Program-made: the position numbers and the translations under genes | The notes under the pieces: model-generated | The model's input: the letters and a program-made list of their open reading frames with translations, nothing else | Databases searched by the model: none | Told to the model about the DNA's origin: nothing | In this document: positions 30,217 through 35,897 of the stretch, piece after piece | How the letters are laid out: each line of letters begins with the position of its first letter | How positions within the stretch are numbered: the first letter of the stretch is position 1 | Source of the DNA: a bacterium | GTDB taxonomy: Bacteria; Desulfobacterota; Deferrisomatia; Deferrisomatales; BM512 | Assembly: GCA_004322275.1 (NCBI GenBank) | Contig: SCTA01000027.1 | Span: forward strand, 880-64,879 | DNA length: 64,000 bases | Direction: 5' to 3'

Positions 30217-30292
30217 GCCGGGATAGCTCAGTCGGTAGAGCAACTGATTCGTAATCAGTAGGTCGTCGGTTCAAGTCCGATTCCCGGCTCCA
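30217..30292 (+). tRNA. tRNA-Thr (anticodon CGT); integration target of the island
   Basis: GCCGGGATAGCTCAGTCGGTAGAGCAACTGATTCGTAATCAGTAGGTCGTCGGTTCAAGTCCGATTCCCGGCTCCA. The anticodon loop is TTCGTAA. Confidence 0.95.
30243..30292 (+). repeat. attL core (3' 50 nt of the intact tRNA-Thr)
   Basis: actgattcgtaatcagtaggtcgtcggttcaagtccgattcccggctcca is identical to 35848-35897. Confidence 0.9.
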
Positions 30293-30300
30293 ATAAAATC

Positions 30301-30337
30301 AAGGGGTTAGGCTAATTGCCTAATCCCTTATTTTTTT
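30301..30337 (+). terminator. island-borne hairpin plus T-run directly after the intact tRNA-Thr
   Basis: aaggggttaggc taat tgcctaatccctt followed by attttttt. Confidence 0.5.
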
Positions 30338-30358
30338 GCAGTCACCTAGGCAGTCACC
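30338..30358 (+). promoter_or_regulatory. pair of direct GCAGTCACC repeats (candidate integrase arm-type sites, attL side)
   Basis: gcagtcacc tag gcagtcacc with 12-nt periodicity. The same arrangement is found at 35712-35732. Confidence 0.45.
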
Positions 30359-30662
30359 AAAAGGATCAATTTCTCCTAACAACTCCCTACCGGATGAAGT
30401 TGTAAGGCTCAATCTTTGCCCTAAAAAAAGGAGGCGTGAGGTTTTTGGTTTTCCATAAAAAGAAGAGGAGGAGGGTGTTCGACTTTCGCCCATAAAAAAA
30501 GAAGCGGGGATAGGGGGGCACCCCATGAAATGAAAATGACTTTCAATCCATGAACCTCACTTAATTCCGGGGCAAAAATATAAAAGGCAACCTGAAGGGG
30601 GAGAGATTTTTCCACTCTCTCTATATCTTCGATTATTTTAAAAAAGATTGTTTTACTGTTGC

Positions 30663-31058
30663 TTAGTACTCTCCGGGGAATACGATAGAATTGGCAACAC
30701 ACGAAAAACTGTCAATTTTTTCTCCTGTCCTATTGTCATAAACATATAAAGAAGGAATAAAAACATTAAAGCTAGCATTGCAAAACTGGTTTACAACTGG
30801 ATGCATTATTTCATCCCTTTTTGTGTAAGGAATATTTTCATATTCACTACGGTTGTTTAAATATATTCTAAGATTGCCACCACCTTTAAGTATATAATCT
30901 GCATCAAAATACATATTATTGTTTTTCAATGCAGCGATTACCAAAGGCTTAATCTTTCTCTTCTGGTCATTGCTTACAAACGTAAAACTACCCGGCAAAT
31001 ACGGCATAGTTTGCGCCACTATAGTCCAAATAATAACTATAATAGTTAAAATGCCCAT
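30663..31058 (-). CDS. island cargo: small membrane-anchored protein, unknown function
   Basis: ATG at 31058 preceded by ggaggg 7 nt upstream. N-terminal TM helix MGILTIIVIIWTIVAQT. The coding sequence is strongly AT-rich. Confidence 0.55.
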   Translation of the reverse strand: MGILTIIVIIWTIVAQTMPYLPGSFTFVSNDQKRKIKPLVIAALKNNNMYFDADYILKGGGNLRIYLNNRSEYENIPYTKRDEIMHPVVNQFCNASFNVFIPSLYVYDNRTGEKIDSFSCVANSIVFPGEY

Positions 31059-31174
31059 ATTAATTCCCTCCAAAGAATTGCAAACGGCAATAAGGCGACG
31101 TTCCGACGCACAGCGACCGAACGAGCTTGTTTTTCATGGCCGCCCCTCCCTCGAATGAGATTACGGCAAGAATA

Positions 31175-31399
31175 TTAGCGCGTAATGCCGATTTTGTCAG
31201 AAACTTCTTTGCAACCGTCGCCCATGCCTTCAAAACCCATCCGAAAAGGCCACAAAGCGCACGTTTTTGAGGTGCAGAACGCGACTTCGTGAACCGACTG
31301 CATACAGTGGACGCAAAATTCCCGTATCGCCGTTTTTCGCGTCAAAAGCCGCGTTTTCTTGTTCCCGCCAACTGTCAGAAAAGTATGTTTAATTGCCAT
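31175..31399 (-). CDS. small Cys4 zinc-ribbon protein common in phage/island modules
   Basis: ATG at 31399 with aggggg SD. The motif is CVHC..(x11)..CTSKTCALWPFRMG. Confidence 0.6.
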   Translation of the reverse strand: MAIKHTFLTVGGNKKTRLLTRKTAIREFCVHCMQSVHEVAFCTSKTCALWPFRMGFEGMGDGCKEVSDKIGITR

Positions 31400-33470: not shown

Positions 33471-33558
33471 TGCGTTTTGCCTCCATAACTTTGGTTTACG
33501 ATATGAAGGCGATTCTATTCGCTGGCTAATGATGAATATAGGAAGCGAAAATAGAAAT

Positions 33559-34338
33559 TTACTTCCGTAATTCCTCTTTTAACTGCGTTAAATAATTTCT
33601 AGCAGCTTCTAAGACTTCTTTAAAAACCTCTTCTCCCATCTCATCTTTACGGAAATCCCCCTGTGCTGGTTTTATGAAAATTTCATGAATATATTGTCTT
33701 ACTGTACGATCAGTAATGCCGTATTTTTGTCCGACTTTTTCATCTGCATATTCTCCCTTTAATCTTTTATCCCTGCGCATTTGCATCGCTTCATTAGCAA
33801 TTCTCAGTTTTATGTCAAAGCTATTAAATTTATTTATTTCTTTTTGTCCAATTTCAAGTGATTCATTCATGTACATTGCGATTGGTGTTTTTGTAATTGC
33901 CTCACAGGAATACAAAATAAATTTTTTAGCATCCTCTGGCAATTTAATATCTTTGCCCAGAGGTCTTACATATAAGCCAGATGGCAAGATAATATCTGCG
34001 CCTAGCTGTAGGGAAACAATCTGGCTCGTAGCGTTCCACATAAAAAGTGGATTTCTTGTACCTTCGTATCGCTGTAGAAATACGCTTATATTAAGTGCCT
34101 TAATTAACACAATTCTTAGTACTTTGTAATTGTGTAGTCTAGCTTGTAACATAGTCTGTATAACTGTATTCATATAATGCGCAATGGTATTATCTGTAGC
34201 GGTAATTATGTTTTCGTAGCTATCAAATTCATTGTATTCAATTGTAAGTTCTTCAATCATGCTTTTTGCGATTTCTTTTATGATTTCGTTTGCAATTACT
34301 TCGTACTTTTTTTTAAATTCCTTCAAATATTTGCCCAT
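33559..34338 (-). CDS. island cargo: AT-rich 259-aa protein with a C-terminal HTH-like segment, unknown function
   Basis: ATG at 34338 with ggagg SD 5 nt upstream. EKVGQKYGITDRTVRQYIHE looks like an HTH. No other motif recognised. Confidence 0.65.
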   Translation of the reverse strand: MGKYLKEFKKKYEVIANEIIKEIAKSMIEELTIEYNEFDSYENIITATDNTIAHYMNTVIQTMLQARLHNYKVLRIVLIKALNISVFLQRYEGTRNPLFMWNATSQIVSLQLGADIILPSGLYVRPLGKDIKLPEDAKKFILYSCEAITKTPIAMYMNESLEIGQKEINKFNSFDIKLRIANEAMQMRRDKRLKGEYADEKVGQKYGITDRTVRQYIHEIFIKPAQGDFRKDEMGEEVFKEVLEAARNYLTQLKEELRK

Positions 34339-34400
34339 TTAATCCTCCGCTTCCGGTAAGCCCACGCTCTAAAGTCTCAAAATTACGGCCTTCTAGAAGC

Positions 34401-35633
34401 CTATTTAATTAGCCTCAAGCCTTGCGCCGCTTCCATCATTCTCTCGCCGTGGTCTTCAAGGGCTTTCCGCGCCGGGTCTTCGCCCAAGCGGGCGTAAATG
34501 GCCGTTGTAGAGGGTTGCGTATGGCCTAGAACCTTGCCGATCAGCGGAAGGCTTGCGCCGCTTGTGGCAAGCCAGCTTCCAACCGTGCGCCTTAGATCGT
34601 GAAGGCGTACATCTTCAAGTTCCGCCTCTTGGCGTATTCGTCGCCAACTCTTCCCTATGTTGACGAGGTGCGTTTTTTCCTTCCTTCCGGGGAATACATG
34701 GGGGTTGCCCTCTTCTCTTGGAAGTTTGTCAAAAAGAGCCTTTGCAGGGGCGCTCAGGGGTATGTAGTGGACGCGCCCCGCCTTGGTGTCAGGTAGCCTC
34801 AGTTCATTGCGCTCAAAGTCAAGGTCTTCCCACTTGGCGTTAAGAAGCTCGCTTTTTCTCGCCCCGGTAAGGAGGTAAGCGAGAATCAAGGCGCGGATAT
34901 AAACATTCGGTTCTTTGTTGATTGCTAGCGCCAGTTTCGGCAACTCTTCGGGCTTTATCCATCTATCCCGCTTTACCTCCCGAAAGGTTTGAACATCCCG
35001 CGCCGGGTTACTGTGTGCATCCGGCAAAAAACCCCACTCCCGCGCCTTCTCAAAGAGAACCGACACAAGGGCAAGAACGCGGTTCGCTTCATATTGCCCG
35101 CTTTCTCCTATCTTGTGATGAAGGGAGGCAACGTCAGAACGCCTAATAGCCTTGATTTTGAGAGTTCCCCAAGCTGGCAGTATATGGAGCTTGATTCGCC
35201 GCTTGTCTTCCTTGCCGGTCTTCTTTTGCGCCGCATGGCGCTCAAGATATGCCTCGCAAAGTTCGGATATATTGCGGTCGTCTTTCTTCCTTTCACGGTC
35301 AGCTAAAGGGTCTACTGGATCAGCGTTAAGCGCATCGGCTGTTGCTATTTTGCCTCCAAGTGCCTTGGCCGCTGCCCTTGCTCCATCTAGGGTGAGGGTA
35401 GGGTATGGTGTATCAAACTGTATAAGACGTTTGCGCCCTTCAACTTCATACGCGAATACCCAAACCTTCTTGCCGCTTGGATACACCCTTAAACCAAGCC
35501 CCGTAGCGTTTAAATCCCATTTTACACAACGGGGTTCTATTCGCTTTCCTTCTGAGTCGGTTTTTATCTCGCATTCATATTGGAATGACTGAACAATCTT
35601 TTGAGTTAGCTGGACTGCGTTACGCCTTGCCAT
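34401..35633 (-). CDS. int: tyrosine-type site-specific integrase (P4-like, N-terminal DUF4102-type arm-binding domain)
   Basis: N-terminus with GLGLRVYPSGKKVWVF. Catalytic region with ARKSELL (R), HDLRRT (H-x-x-R) and LGHTQPSTTAIY (H, Y). Confidence 0.9.
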   Translation of the reverse strand: MARRNAVQLTQKIVQSFQYECEIKTDSEGKRIEPRCVKWDLNATGLGLRVYPSGKKVWVFAYEVEGRKRLIQFDTPYPTLTLDGARAAAKALGGKIATADALNADPVDPLADRERKKDDRNISELCEAYLERHAAQKKTGKEDKRRIKLHILPAWGTLKIKAIRRSDVASLHHKIGESGQYEANRVLALVSVLFEKAREWGFLPDAHSNPARDVQTFREVKRDRWIKPEELPKLALAINKEPNVYIRALILAYLLTGARKSELLNAKWEDLDFERNELRLPDTKAGRVHYIPLSAPAKALFDKLPREEGNPHVFPGRKEKTHLVNIGKSWRRIRQEAELEDVRLHDLRRTVGSWLATSGASLPLIGKVLGHTQPSTTAIYARLGEDPARKALEDHGERMMEAAQGLRLIK

Positions 35634-35711
35634 TTTTCACCGCCTTTTTTAACGGTTGCGACTTATTAGGTGACTTCACCAAAACAGGTTTTCAAAATCA
35701 GTGAACCTCAA

Positions 35712-35732
35712 GCAGTCACTATAGCAGTCACC
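35712..35732 (+). promoter_or_regulatory. pair of direct GCAGTCAC(T/C) repeats (candidate integrase arm-type sites, attR side)
   Basis: gcagtcact ata gcagtcacc with 12-nt periodicity. An inverted copy, ggtgact, lies at 35669-35675. The sites sit between the integrase start and attR. Confidence 0.45.
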
Positions 35733-35847
35733 TGAATATAACGCAAGGCATGGTATGCCATGAAAAACCATGAAGGCTAGAATGTTGAATTATAGGGATT
35801 TTATTGGAGAATGGAGAATTGCAAAGTATGGCGTGATAGCATGATAC

Positions 35848-35897
35848 ACTGATTCGTAATCAGTAGGTCGTCGGTTCAAGTCCGATTCCCGGCTCCA
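35848..35897 (+). repeat. attR core (displaced 3' tRNA-Thr fragment)
   Basis: Matches 30243-30292 at 50 of 50 positions. Upstream of it the tRNA 5' half is absent. Confidence 0.9.

Follow-up and report, generated by a model that had tools for sequence, protein, structure and literature searches.

In the 3' half of a tRNA-Thr(CGT) gene, a 64,000-nucleotide stretch of a bacterial genome assembly (GenBank GCA_004322275.1, contig SCTA01000027.1, positions 880 to 64,879; hereafter the window) carries an integrative element of 5,605 bp. This element is real, well delimited, and apparently intact, and an earlier reading of the same letters, made without database searches (the sequence-only reading), was essentially right about it. 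To that reading our analysis adds the identity of the replicon, a probable origin of replication inside a gene, candidate integrase arm sites, and an attachment site that carries a terminator. On balance, we favor the view that the element is an integrative, self-replicating mini-island, organized as int, orfX, an xis-like gene, a RepAM-type rep with its origin, the partners of rep, and cargo. It would depend on a helper, most likely as a satellite resembling the minimalist chromosomal islands inducible by phages (PICMIs) or the "type C" phage-inducible chromosomal islands (PICIs).

ARAGORN places the intact tRNA-Thr(CGT) at 30217-30292 on the plus strand (Rfam tRNA score, 73.5 bits), directly preceded by a tRNA-Ala(CGC) at 30097-30172 on the same strand. 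A repeat search reproduced the perfect repeat claimed before, at the same coordinates: 50 of 50 nucleotides, from tRNA position 27, where the anticodon stem begins, to the encoded CCA, recur as a direct repeat 5,555 nt further on, and the identity ends abruptly, with 0 nt of extension on either side. The island therefore shows a direct repeat of a tRNA 3' part beside an intact tRNA, as do tRNA-integrating tyrosine-recombinase islands. According to a 2002 survey of tRNA sites by Williams, a repeat that begins in the anticodon stem is reportedly to be expected if crossover occurs in the anticodon loop and the element re-supplies everything 3' of it; here, too, crossover probably took place in the anticodon loop, somewhere inside the 50-bp identity. 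In addition, the G+C content of the island interior is 47.0%, against 55.8% and 55.9% in the 10-kb flanks, and the two AT-rich blocks coincide with a 259-aa open reading frame (ORF; 33.3% G+C) and a 131/136-aa ORF (33.1% G+C). Both the lower G+C and the AT-rich blocks had been noticed in the sequence-only reading, as had the orientation of the genes, every listed ORF being recovered on the minus strand. The Rfam scan returned tRNAs and sub-threshold noise and nothing else, and the promoter scan gave no enrichment over shuffles.

The replicon is identified by rep. Its product has a sole Pfam match, to PF12307 (DUF3631; E = 1.7e-49, 168.9 bits against a cut-off of 24), and carries a Walker A motif (APEKRCGKT) at residue 152 and a Walker B motif (LLIDEVD) at residue 195, both invariant across 37 Rep homologues. 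Its earlier description as a DUF3631 P-loop protein stands as far as the P-loop motifs are concerned but understated the gene, since this family has been equated with RepAM, the replication initiator of the Amycolatopsis element pMEA300 (PMC3218068), and rep is the replicase of the island. The absence of a primase was also described correctly: Rep has no Toprim, PriCT, or Prim-Pol domain. Among the metagenomic candidates scored, 5,228 were significant matches to Rep. Approximately half of the best 120 homologues are ~800 aa long, with an N-terminal Toprim, PriCT, or Prim-Pol primase; the primase-less form likewise makes up about half of these 120 and occurs in otherwise complete elements such as L002 and L083-L086. 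The closest homologue (69% identical, at locus L001) has a fused Toprim primase, and this ~1-kb Toprim part is missing in the window. Identity to the homologues of Streptomyces plasmids is only ~35-37%. An AlphaFold2 (AF2) model built from 37 homologues reached a mean predicted local distance difference test score (pLDDT) of 61 with a disordered P-loop core and was too poor to add support. Foldseek found nothing below E = 0.5 for it in the PDB, its weak top matches (MCM, ORC, and Cdc6) being unusable, and sequence and profile searches of Rep against the PDB gave 0 matches.

RepAM binds multiple identical 8-bp repeats that lie in the 3' end of its own gene and are capable of forming hairpins, and it has a homologue in the prophage-like element phiRv2 (PMC2440964). 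Multiple repeats with hairpin potential are also present inside the 3' end of rep in the window. Eight GTKGCGG-like 7-mers (at most one mismatch) fall within 200 nt, compared with 12 over the remaining 5.3 kb; they include CTGTTGCGGAT (31867), CTGTGGCGGAT (inverted, 31908), and GTGTTGCAGAT (31786), and the DNA fold of the region has a z score of -3.4 against shuffles. Variants of the motif were found in 10 or more relatives, at the equivalent position in rep (Table 1). When the repeats of L083/L084 were aligned copy for copy with those of the window, each copy was seen to bear the same T-to-A change, the mark of a binding site that evolves together with its protein. Given this coordinate switching of motifs between related elements, 31780-31910 is probably an in-gene origin of replication, as in pMEA300. 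As a RepAM initiator with a probable origin in its own 3' end, Rep would make the island a replicon rather than a mere passenger.

These repeats also bear on the protein. The direct copies translate as Val-Ala-Asp in the window and in L001, and a twice-repeated VAD appears in the family consensus. The disordered C-terminal tail of Rep (pLDDT < 50) keeps the pattern VAD...RCGN...ATPKP...GCGGVAD across the 37 homologues, coinciding with the DNA repeats (31748-31900). We infer that the conservation of this tail is at least partly a by-product of constraint on the origin at the DNA level.

The attachment site is equally informative. In the whole 64 kb, 0.5 occurrences of the 9-mer GCAGTCACY would be expected and four were counted, a number that none of 100 shuffles reached. 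All four belong to tandem pairs, of which each end of the island has one. Upstream of the related integrases in the four loci recovered (L114, L115, L116, and L117), the pair next to int does not vary. In three of these (L114, L116, and L117), a partial tRNA copy stands beside the arm pair and int; by our reading of the sequence, it derives from tRNA-Pro(GGG) or tRNA-Lys(UUU). We regard the GCAGTCACY pairs as good candidates for the arm-type sites of the Arm-DNA-bind_3 domain. A scan of metagenome contigs for the arm-site pattern returned at least 120 loci, and the 80 that were examined had neither an integrase nor extended similarity and are thus chance matches to an 18-base pattern.

Hairpins followed by a T-run were recovered by the terminator scan at 30301-30329 and 35908-35941, in agreement with the two distinct features previously reported after the two tRNA copies. 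The first of them must belong to attP, since it has the core on one side and the P' arm pair on the other. We considered whether the left boundary had been misplaced, given that a hairpin after an intact tRNA looks native, and rejected this; the GCAGTCACC pair lies beyond the hairpin. Hairpins of the CAAGGGGTTAGGC type are also found 3' of a native, unrelated tRNA-Arg (window 19036-19005) and 3' of tRNA-Thr in the island-free relatives L003, L005, and L009. In our reconstruction, attP holds a copy of tRNA positions 27-76 together with a tRNA terminator of the lineage type, with an arm-site pair on either side. Because attP carries the tRNA 3' half and a terminator, the tRNA at attL is completed and terminated by element DNA, and the host's own downstream terminator is left behind the dead 3' half at attR.

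The form shared by these hairpins is (G/A)TAAAATCAAGGGGTTA(G/C)G...C(C/G)TAACCC(C)TT plus a T-run, starting ~8 nt after CCA. It was seen at window 19005-19044 (-) and 30293-30337, L003 5013-5060, L005 2622-2670, L009 11703-11750, L114 ~340-400, and L117 ~9700-9760, where it follows tRNA-Arg, -Thr, -Pro, and -Lys in this genome and in distant relatives; its 3' arm shows compensatory changes. The motif seems to terminate tRNA operons across the lineage, and the attP of the island copies it. Just past the hairpin, L003 (apparently island-free, with ~600 nt of downstream sequence) resembles the P' side as well: by eye, ~24 of 29 nt are alike between L003 5062-5090 and window 30367-30395, and the GCAGTCACC pair is absent. 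This similarity may be left over from an old related element, or L003 may show the kind of host flank from which attP was taken. Further inside, between the P' arm sites and orf131, stand three A-tract copies (CCCTAAAAAAAGGAG, CCATAAAAAGAAGAG, and CCATAAAAAAAGAAG), which are possibly bending or accessory-factor sites; a spurious 93-aa ORF in this non-coding stretch simply reflects them.

All ORFs of the island are intact, with good ribosome-binding sites and coupled starts. They are transcribed in the order int, orfX259, hth66, rep, orf120, orf74, and orf131, and hth66, rep, orf120, and orf74 form a tight operon. The integrase matches Phage_integrase (PF00589, 5e-26) and Arm-DNA-bind_3 (PF13356, 8e-11), is full length, and retains the catalytic residues R259, K284, H345, R348, H371, and Y380. 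Its closest homologues (84% and 78% identical) can be aligned with it from end to end (100% of the integrase), and another full-length one is 67% identical, all of which upholds the earlier call of an intact tyrosine integrase. The related integrases whose loci were recovered are P0124 (84%; L114 and L115), P0125 (78%; L116), and P0127 (59%; L117). The protein previously labeled an AlpA-type excisionase, hth66, is excisionase-like by its matches to HTH_17 and to phrog_66 (annotated "excisionase and transcriptional regulator"); it matches PF12728 and not PF05930 (Phage_AlpA), and so it is AlpA-like, not AlpA proper. We predict that it acts as a recombination directionality factor or activator. 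Its gene lies 930 nt from int, giving the combination of int with an alpA gene (PF05930 or PF12728) by which PICMIs are recognized. Searched with four hidden Markov model (HMM) libraries (Pfam, PHROG, NCBIfam, and PADLOC), the island ORFs yielded no capsid, tail, terminase, packaging, relaxase, or type IV secretion system family. This agrees with the earlier statement that capsid, tail, and conjugation genes are missing, and the four small or orphan ORFs counted at that time likewise have no family above threshold. The PADLOC defense models gave no match save a weak one of the helix-turn-helix (HTH) protein hth66 to mad1 (E = 0.008).

Table 1. Features of the island in the window and of related loci, with window positions unless stated otherwise
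Feature	Position (nt)	Strand	Basis
attL core copy, anticodon stem through CCA	30243-30292	+	Repeat search, ARAGORN, Rfam
Element-borne terminator, hairpin + T-run (CAAGGGGTTAGGC-type), ends rebuilt tRNA	30301-30337	+	Terminator scan
P' arm, two direct GCAGTCACC repeats, candidate integrase arm-type sites	30338-30358	+	GCAGTCACY count
Three A-tract repeats (CCMTAAAAARRARGAG), spaced 34 and 37 nt, non-coding P' side	30419-30504	.	Repeat search
orf131, 131 aa, 33% G+C orphan, N-terminal hydrophobic anchor (MGILTIIVIIWTIVAQT), distal cargo slot	30663-31058	-	ORF
orf74, 74 aa, small CxxC...C...C zinc-ribbon-like protein downstream of rep	31175-31399	-	ORF
orf120, 120 aa, conserved rep partner, start overlaps rep stop (ATGA)	31389-31751	-	Sequence
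rep, 503-505 aa, DUF3631/RepAM P-loop initiator/helicase-like, no primase domain	31748-33265	-	PF12307
Candidate origin, eight GTKGCGG-like 7-mers in both orientations, hairpin potential	31780-31910	-	Motif count
hth/rep junction block, hairpin AAGGGGTT-GAACATG-AACCCCTT, rep start codon in loop	33208-33270	-	Conservation, fold
hth66, 66 aa, HTH_17 (MerR/excisionase-type) DNA-binding protein	33270-33470	-	PF12728 8e-9; phrog_66 3e-9
orfX259, 259 aa, 33% G+C orphan in int-xis slot	33559-34338	-	ORF; no family
int, 410 aa, P4-type tyrosine integrase with N-terminal arm-binding domain	34401-35633	-	Pfam, PHROG
P arm, direct GCAGTCACY pair (35712-35732) and inverted near-copy GGTGACTTC (35669-35677)	35669-35732	.	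Repeat search
attR core copy, partial tRNA-Thr 3' half	35848-35897	+	Repeat search; sub-threshold Rfam tRNA match, 27.2 bits
Chromosomal (B') terminator just outside element	35908-35947	+	Terminator scan
Predicted attP junction, ...GCATGATAC|ACTGATTCGTAATCAGTAGGTCGTCGGTTCAAGTCCGATTCCCGGCTCCA|ATAAAATCAAGGGGTTAGG...			
Predicted attB junction, ...GTCGGTAGAGCA|ACTGATTCG...CCCGGCTCCA|TTCATTCAAAAAAAAGCCTG...			
L083/L084, rep motif CCGCTAC, 8 copies			
L085, rep motif CGGTTAC, 5 copies			
L087, rep motif CCGCAAC, 5 copies			
L120, rep motif TCCGCGA, 5 copies			
L088/L090, rep motif CTCTACA, 6 copies			
L104, rep motif CTAACGC, 6 copies			
L002, backbone adjoins tRNA-Ala, HigBA cargo			
L083, backbone adjoins tRNA-Phe			
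L085, backbone adjoins tRNA-SeC, HigBA cargo			
L086, backbone with dCMP-deaminase/NUDIX cluster	4477-8385 (L086)		
L114, window-type integrase, type I restriction-modification system, AAA_15 ATPase	2064-9595 (L114)		
L117 and L119, window-type integrase with AAA_25 replicases			
L118, window-type integrase with split Toprim primase			

Two small genes appear to belong with rep. The product of orf120 is 60% identical to that of the gene in the equivalent position in L001, and that of orf74 is 53% identical to its L001 equivalent, both of the latter having only sub-threshold zf-C4pol matches. Thus rep, orf120, and orf74 are kept together in L001, whose xis-like gene differs in type. An analogous small gene after the replicase of L119 has a weak TubC_N match. 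Conservation extends to the junction between hth66 and rep, which is 90% identical to L001, compared with 71% for the flanking coding DNA, and has an RNA fold z score of -3.0; a block of 45-63 nt is common here to the window, L001 (911-973), and L113 (~1410-1470), despite their differing xis types. The junction block is probably a translation or regulatory element and could alternatively be a joint for module recombination.

The two AT-rich orphans look like later-acquired accessory or regulatory cargo. For the protein orfX259, helices are predicted throughout, with a motif resembling a helix-turn-helix (YGITDRTVRQYI) at the C terminus; its only family matches, to Sigma70_r4/GerE, are sub-threshold. 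A word-indexed search of 5.8e9 clusters returned only the protein itself, and a full HMMER scan of 1.84e9 representatives returned one relative, P0122 (45% identity). The gene for P0122 occupies the same slot of L113, just upstream of an xis-like gene and the conserved junction block. L113 (1-2331) is a reduced element with the xis-like gene, the junction block, and an orf120-like C-terminal fragment, in which a 142-aa gene replaces rep. The AF2 model of orfX259 (pLDDT 47) was too poor for a fold search, and tblastn against phages gave a chance-level match (E = 0.06). Its slot is that of iolg/icg in PICMI and of the variable repressors in other islands; on that ground, our best guess at its role is a regulatory one, and orfX259 is probably a DNA-binding regulator. 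The distal orphan, orf131, has a GGAGG ribosome-binding site 8 nt upstream, and the identical start was called independently. It gave no family in the four HMM libraries and no tblastn match in phages, and we predict that it is a membrane-anchored protein.

The backbone of the island, i.e., an xis-like HTH gene, an optional small zinc-ribbon ORF, a DUF3631 rep, and small partners, recurs elsewhere with unrelated integrases (at most 29% identity), whereas the window-type integrase recurs with other contents (Table 1). We conclude that int, rep, and cargo are exchangeable modules. The restriction-modification, deaminase/NUDIX, and HigBA genes of the relatives are typical defense or addiction cargo. 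They occupy the positions of the two orphans, which makes the latter reasonable candidates for new regulatory or anti-phage functions.

DUF3631 is scarce among sequenced phages (2 of 50,697 records, both resembling chromosomal islands) and among plasmids (3 of 72,556, all actinomycete). The two "phage" records, PV029746.1 (L120) and PP003913.1 (L121), hold ABC-transporter, dehydrogenase, or Rhs genes. These entries, Phipami28 and vB_Pae_U1, were set aside as uninformative, since they contain chromosomal genes or look like islands or mis-assemblies deposited as Pseudomonas phages. In IMG/VR, small contigs with a DUF3631 replicon are common; we scanned 16 of them, 5.6-11 kb long (among L087-L111), a sample biased to viral hallmark genes. 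The neighbors of Rep in these contigs included capsid (8 ORFs), TerL (7), portal (6), prohead protease (5), and terS (2) genes, and the 25 families listed for the 16 contigs included no tail or conjugation family. By gene content, these contigs look like satellites of the capsid-forming PICI (cf-PICI) or phiRv2 type. Within the limits of this biased sample, the DUF3631 replicon serves phage-dependent elements as well as the integrative and conjugative elements of actinomycetes (AICEs).

Putting these parts together, we postulate the following life cycle. The P4-type integrase would recombine attP with tRNA-Thr(CGT), rebuilding a complete, terminated tRNA at attL and leaving a dead 3' half at attR. 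Int and the HTH_17 protein would later excise a 5.6-kb circle, and Rep would bind the GTKGCGG repeats inside its own 3' end and start replication. Because the island Rep has no primase domain, a host or helper primase would be used. Given that no transfer or packaging function is encoded, the element would leave the cell only with a helper. For the transfer step specifically, we favor dependence on a helper phage, as in the minimalist islands, at somewhat less than an even chance, the remaining alternatives including other routes such as vesicles.

Several observations weigh against the view of a self-replicating, helper-dependent satellite. Neither a helper, nor a cos or pac site, nor a phage-sensing component was identified. 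Rep lacks the primase of its closest homologue, and the window has one perfect GTTGCGG copy against three in L001; both may point to partial decay. RepAM replicons also serve conjugative AICEs, so the type of replicon does not identify the route of transfer. The IMG/VR census favors contigs with viral hallmarks, and the structure predictions for Rep and orfX259 are too poor to support either assignment. Finally, the exact empty-site (attB) pattern had 0 matches in metagenome contigs, an attP junction was not found either, and none of the collections searched had a near-identical copy of the element (best Rep, 69%; best Int, 84%). A direct sign of activity or spread is therefore lacking.

The sequence-only reading had taken the acquisition to be recent and the element to be probably still excisable. 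Both may hold, and the 50 identical bases bound the divergence just loosely. The ThrC-like protein encoded in the flank has its best matches (72-80%) in metagenome-assembled genomes of uncultured Thermodesulfobacteriota/"Deltaproteobacteria," some labeled Deferrisomatales. These relatives have tRNA-Ala and tRNA-Thr and no island in the ~0.6-4.6 kb available downstream, where the genes differ, and three of them (L003, L005, and L009) keep the order thrC, tRNA-Ala, tRNA-Thr. The collections searched held no genome close enough for a true empty-site control. Directly to the right of the island (36057-38503), two ORFs of 367 and 455 aa with many CxxCH motifs presumably encode multiheme c-type cytochromes of the host.

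Several of these points would also fit a stranded, decaying island, namely a former primase-encoding int-xis-rep element that no longer moves or replicates and is vertically inherited, although we consider this unlikely. The ~1-kb Toprim region is missing relative to L001, and the first 19 codons of rep match a segment upstream of the L001 primase gene, as at a deletion junction; moreover, the iterons vary more from copy to copy than those of L001 or L083, a second copy of the element was not found in the collections searched, and RepAM elements of the pMEA type co-evolve mainly with their hosts (PMC2440964). Against decay, however, stand the intact ORFs with good ribosome-binding sites and coupled starts, the complete catalytic set of the integrase, the perfect repeats, and the arm sites on both sides. 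In addition, about half of the best 120 Rep homologues are primase-less in otherwise complete elements, and the commonness of such forms means that a short Rep is a stable variant and not necessarily a product of decay.

It is less likely still that the island is an integrative mobilizable element, moved through an unannotated oriT by a co-resident conjugative element and not by a phage. The presence of int and xis without packaging genes would suit such an element, RepAM replicons are most familiar from the conjugative elements of actinomycetes, for which a pC194-like nick site within the repeat hairpin has been proposed (PMC2440964), and the candidate origin region of the island does fold into hairpins. 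Nevertheless, scans of the libraries found no relaxase, coupling protein, FtsK/Tra, or known oriT-associated family, DUF3631 is nearly absent from the 72,556 plasmids, and the neighbors of Rep in the 16 IMG/VR contigs are capsid, portal, and terminase genes, with no conjugation among the 25 families listed.

That the repeat and the island are an artefact of assembly (a mis-join or a duplicated tRNA 3' half) is highly improbable: the source assembly is of metagenome type and assemblers do make errors at 50-bp repeats, yet an independent k=31 assembly is identical inside, breaks k-1 nt into the repeat at the recovered end, and has a length that fits the other end, and L114, L116, and L117 likewise have a partial tRNA beside conserved arm sites and int. 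That assembly (Logan, run SRR8426595) has a contig of 5,615 nt for the island, of which 5,319 nt were retrieved with 100% identity to window 35877-30559, starting exactly 30 nt inside the right repeat. Since 5,615 equals 5,555 plus twice 30, the 50-mer is a point at which the reads truly branch into two contexts. It is no duplication by the assembler, which had been named beforehand as an outcome that would undo the call. The contig thus speaks against duplication; by its sequence, it says nothing of excision. The many ~5.6-kb contigs that carry Rep homologues were considered as possible excised circles and rejected as evidence: the ends of L001 do not overlap, and the 5,615 nt are explained by k-1 overlaps into the repeat.

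The island by itself is routine, and its value lies in what it samples. The int-xis-RepAM islands to which it belongs are a very large population, modular in build and for the most part undescribed: DUF3631 is abundant in metagenomes, yet in the literature searched, a single paper names it, and only for actinomycete conjugative elements (PMC3218068). Collectively, the island and its relatives show the RepAM initiator as a portable replication module with element-specific repeats written into its own coding sequence, and this module spans minimal int-xis-rep islands of Gram-negative lineages and capsid-encoding, satellite-like contigs. They offer a concrete, testable origin-initiator pair and a simple marker for cataloguing such islands (int plus HTH_17/AlpA plus PF12307). 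A bolder proposal is that minimalist phage satellites with RepAM/DUF3631 replicons and protein-coding iterons form a very large undescribed class, of which the island, from an uncultured lineage resembling sulfate reducers (Thermodesulfobacteriota), is the first recognized member; orfX259 would be a master regulator that senses the helper and orf131 a new anti-phage or exclusion function. We offer this tentatively and think it rather doubtful as a whole. Interest in the island is moderate to low unless a function of the orphan cargo or satellite behavior is demonstrated.

Among known systems, tycheposons (bioRxiv 10.1101/2020.12.28.424599) are one kind that the island resembles: both have a tyrosine recombinase that targets tRNAs, an excisionase, a replication module of the primase/helicase type, variable cargo, and partial tRNAs at their borders. 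Tycheposons, however, have their own integrase clade in marine cyanobacteria and relatives, and their replicase families differ from that of the island. P4-like satellites are similar in having a P4-type integrase with an arm-binding domain, integration at a tRNA 3' end, an AlpA-like protein, a primase-helicase-related replicase, and variable cargo slots. The island, in contrast, is half the size of P4, has no matches to psu, sid, delta, epsilon, or cnr, and its replicase is not of the P4 alpha type (no D5_N and no Toprim). It also differs from PICIs of types A and B and from cf-PICIs in having no terS, capsid-morphogenesis, portal, protease, or head-tail genes (Pfam and PHROG), although capsid, portal, protease, and terminase genes do accompany DUF3631 replicases in small contigs that look like cf-PICIs.

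The AICEs of the pMEA300 type (PMC2440964, PMC3218068) resemble the island in their PF12307 initiator, in repeats with hairpin potential in its own 3' end, in a tyrosine integrase with Xis, and in tRNA integration. They are, however, elements of 13-23 kb in actinomycete hosts and carry FtsK-like Tra, Kor regulators, and Nudix genes, all of which the island is without; no FtsK/SpoIIIE-type Tra (PF01580) or other transfer family was found in its ORFs. With the type C PICI of SatelliteFinder (PMC10085698), it shares the trio of int, an AlpA/MerR-type regulator, and a replicase, a type whose members, in the view of its authors, may be functional or defective or may be elements of some other kind (PMC10085698). 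PICMI (PMC10803314) differs in its replication protein (DUF3987/DUF5906, against PF12307 alone here), in its site next to or downstream of fis rather than in tRNA-Thr(CGT), and in its Vibrionaceae hosts, compared with an uncultured Thermodesulfobacteriota-like lineage; helper dependence has been demonstrated there and is predicted here. Even so, the two are alike in size (6.1 kb versus 5.6 kb), in having no capsid-remodeling or packaging genes, and in their plan of int, a gene abutting int (iolg/icg in PICMI), an alpA-type HTH gene, a replication protein gene, and a distal accessory gene (up2). PICMI thus provides the precedent that a 6-kb int-alpA-prim island without packaging genes works as a satellite, with its distal slot occupied by the defense gene up2 (PMC10803314).

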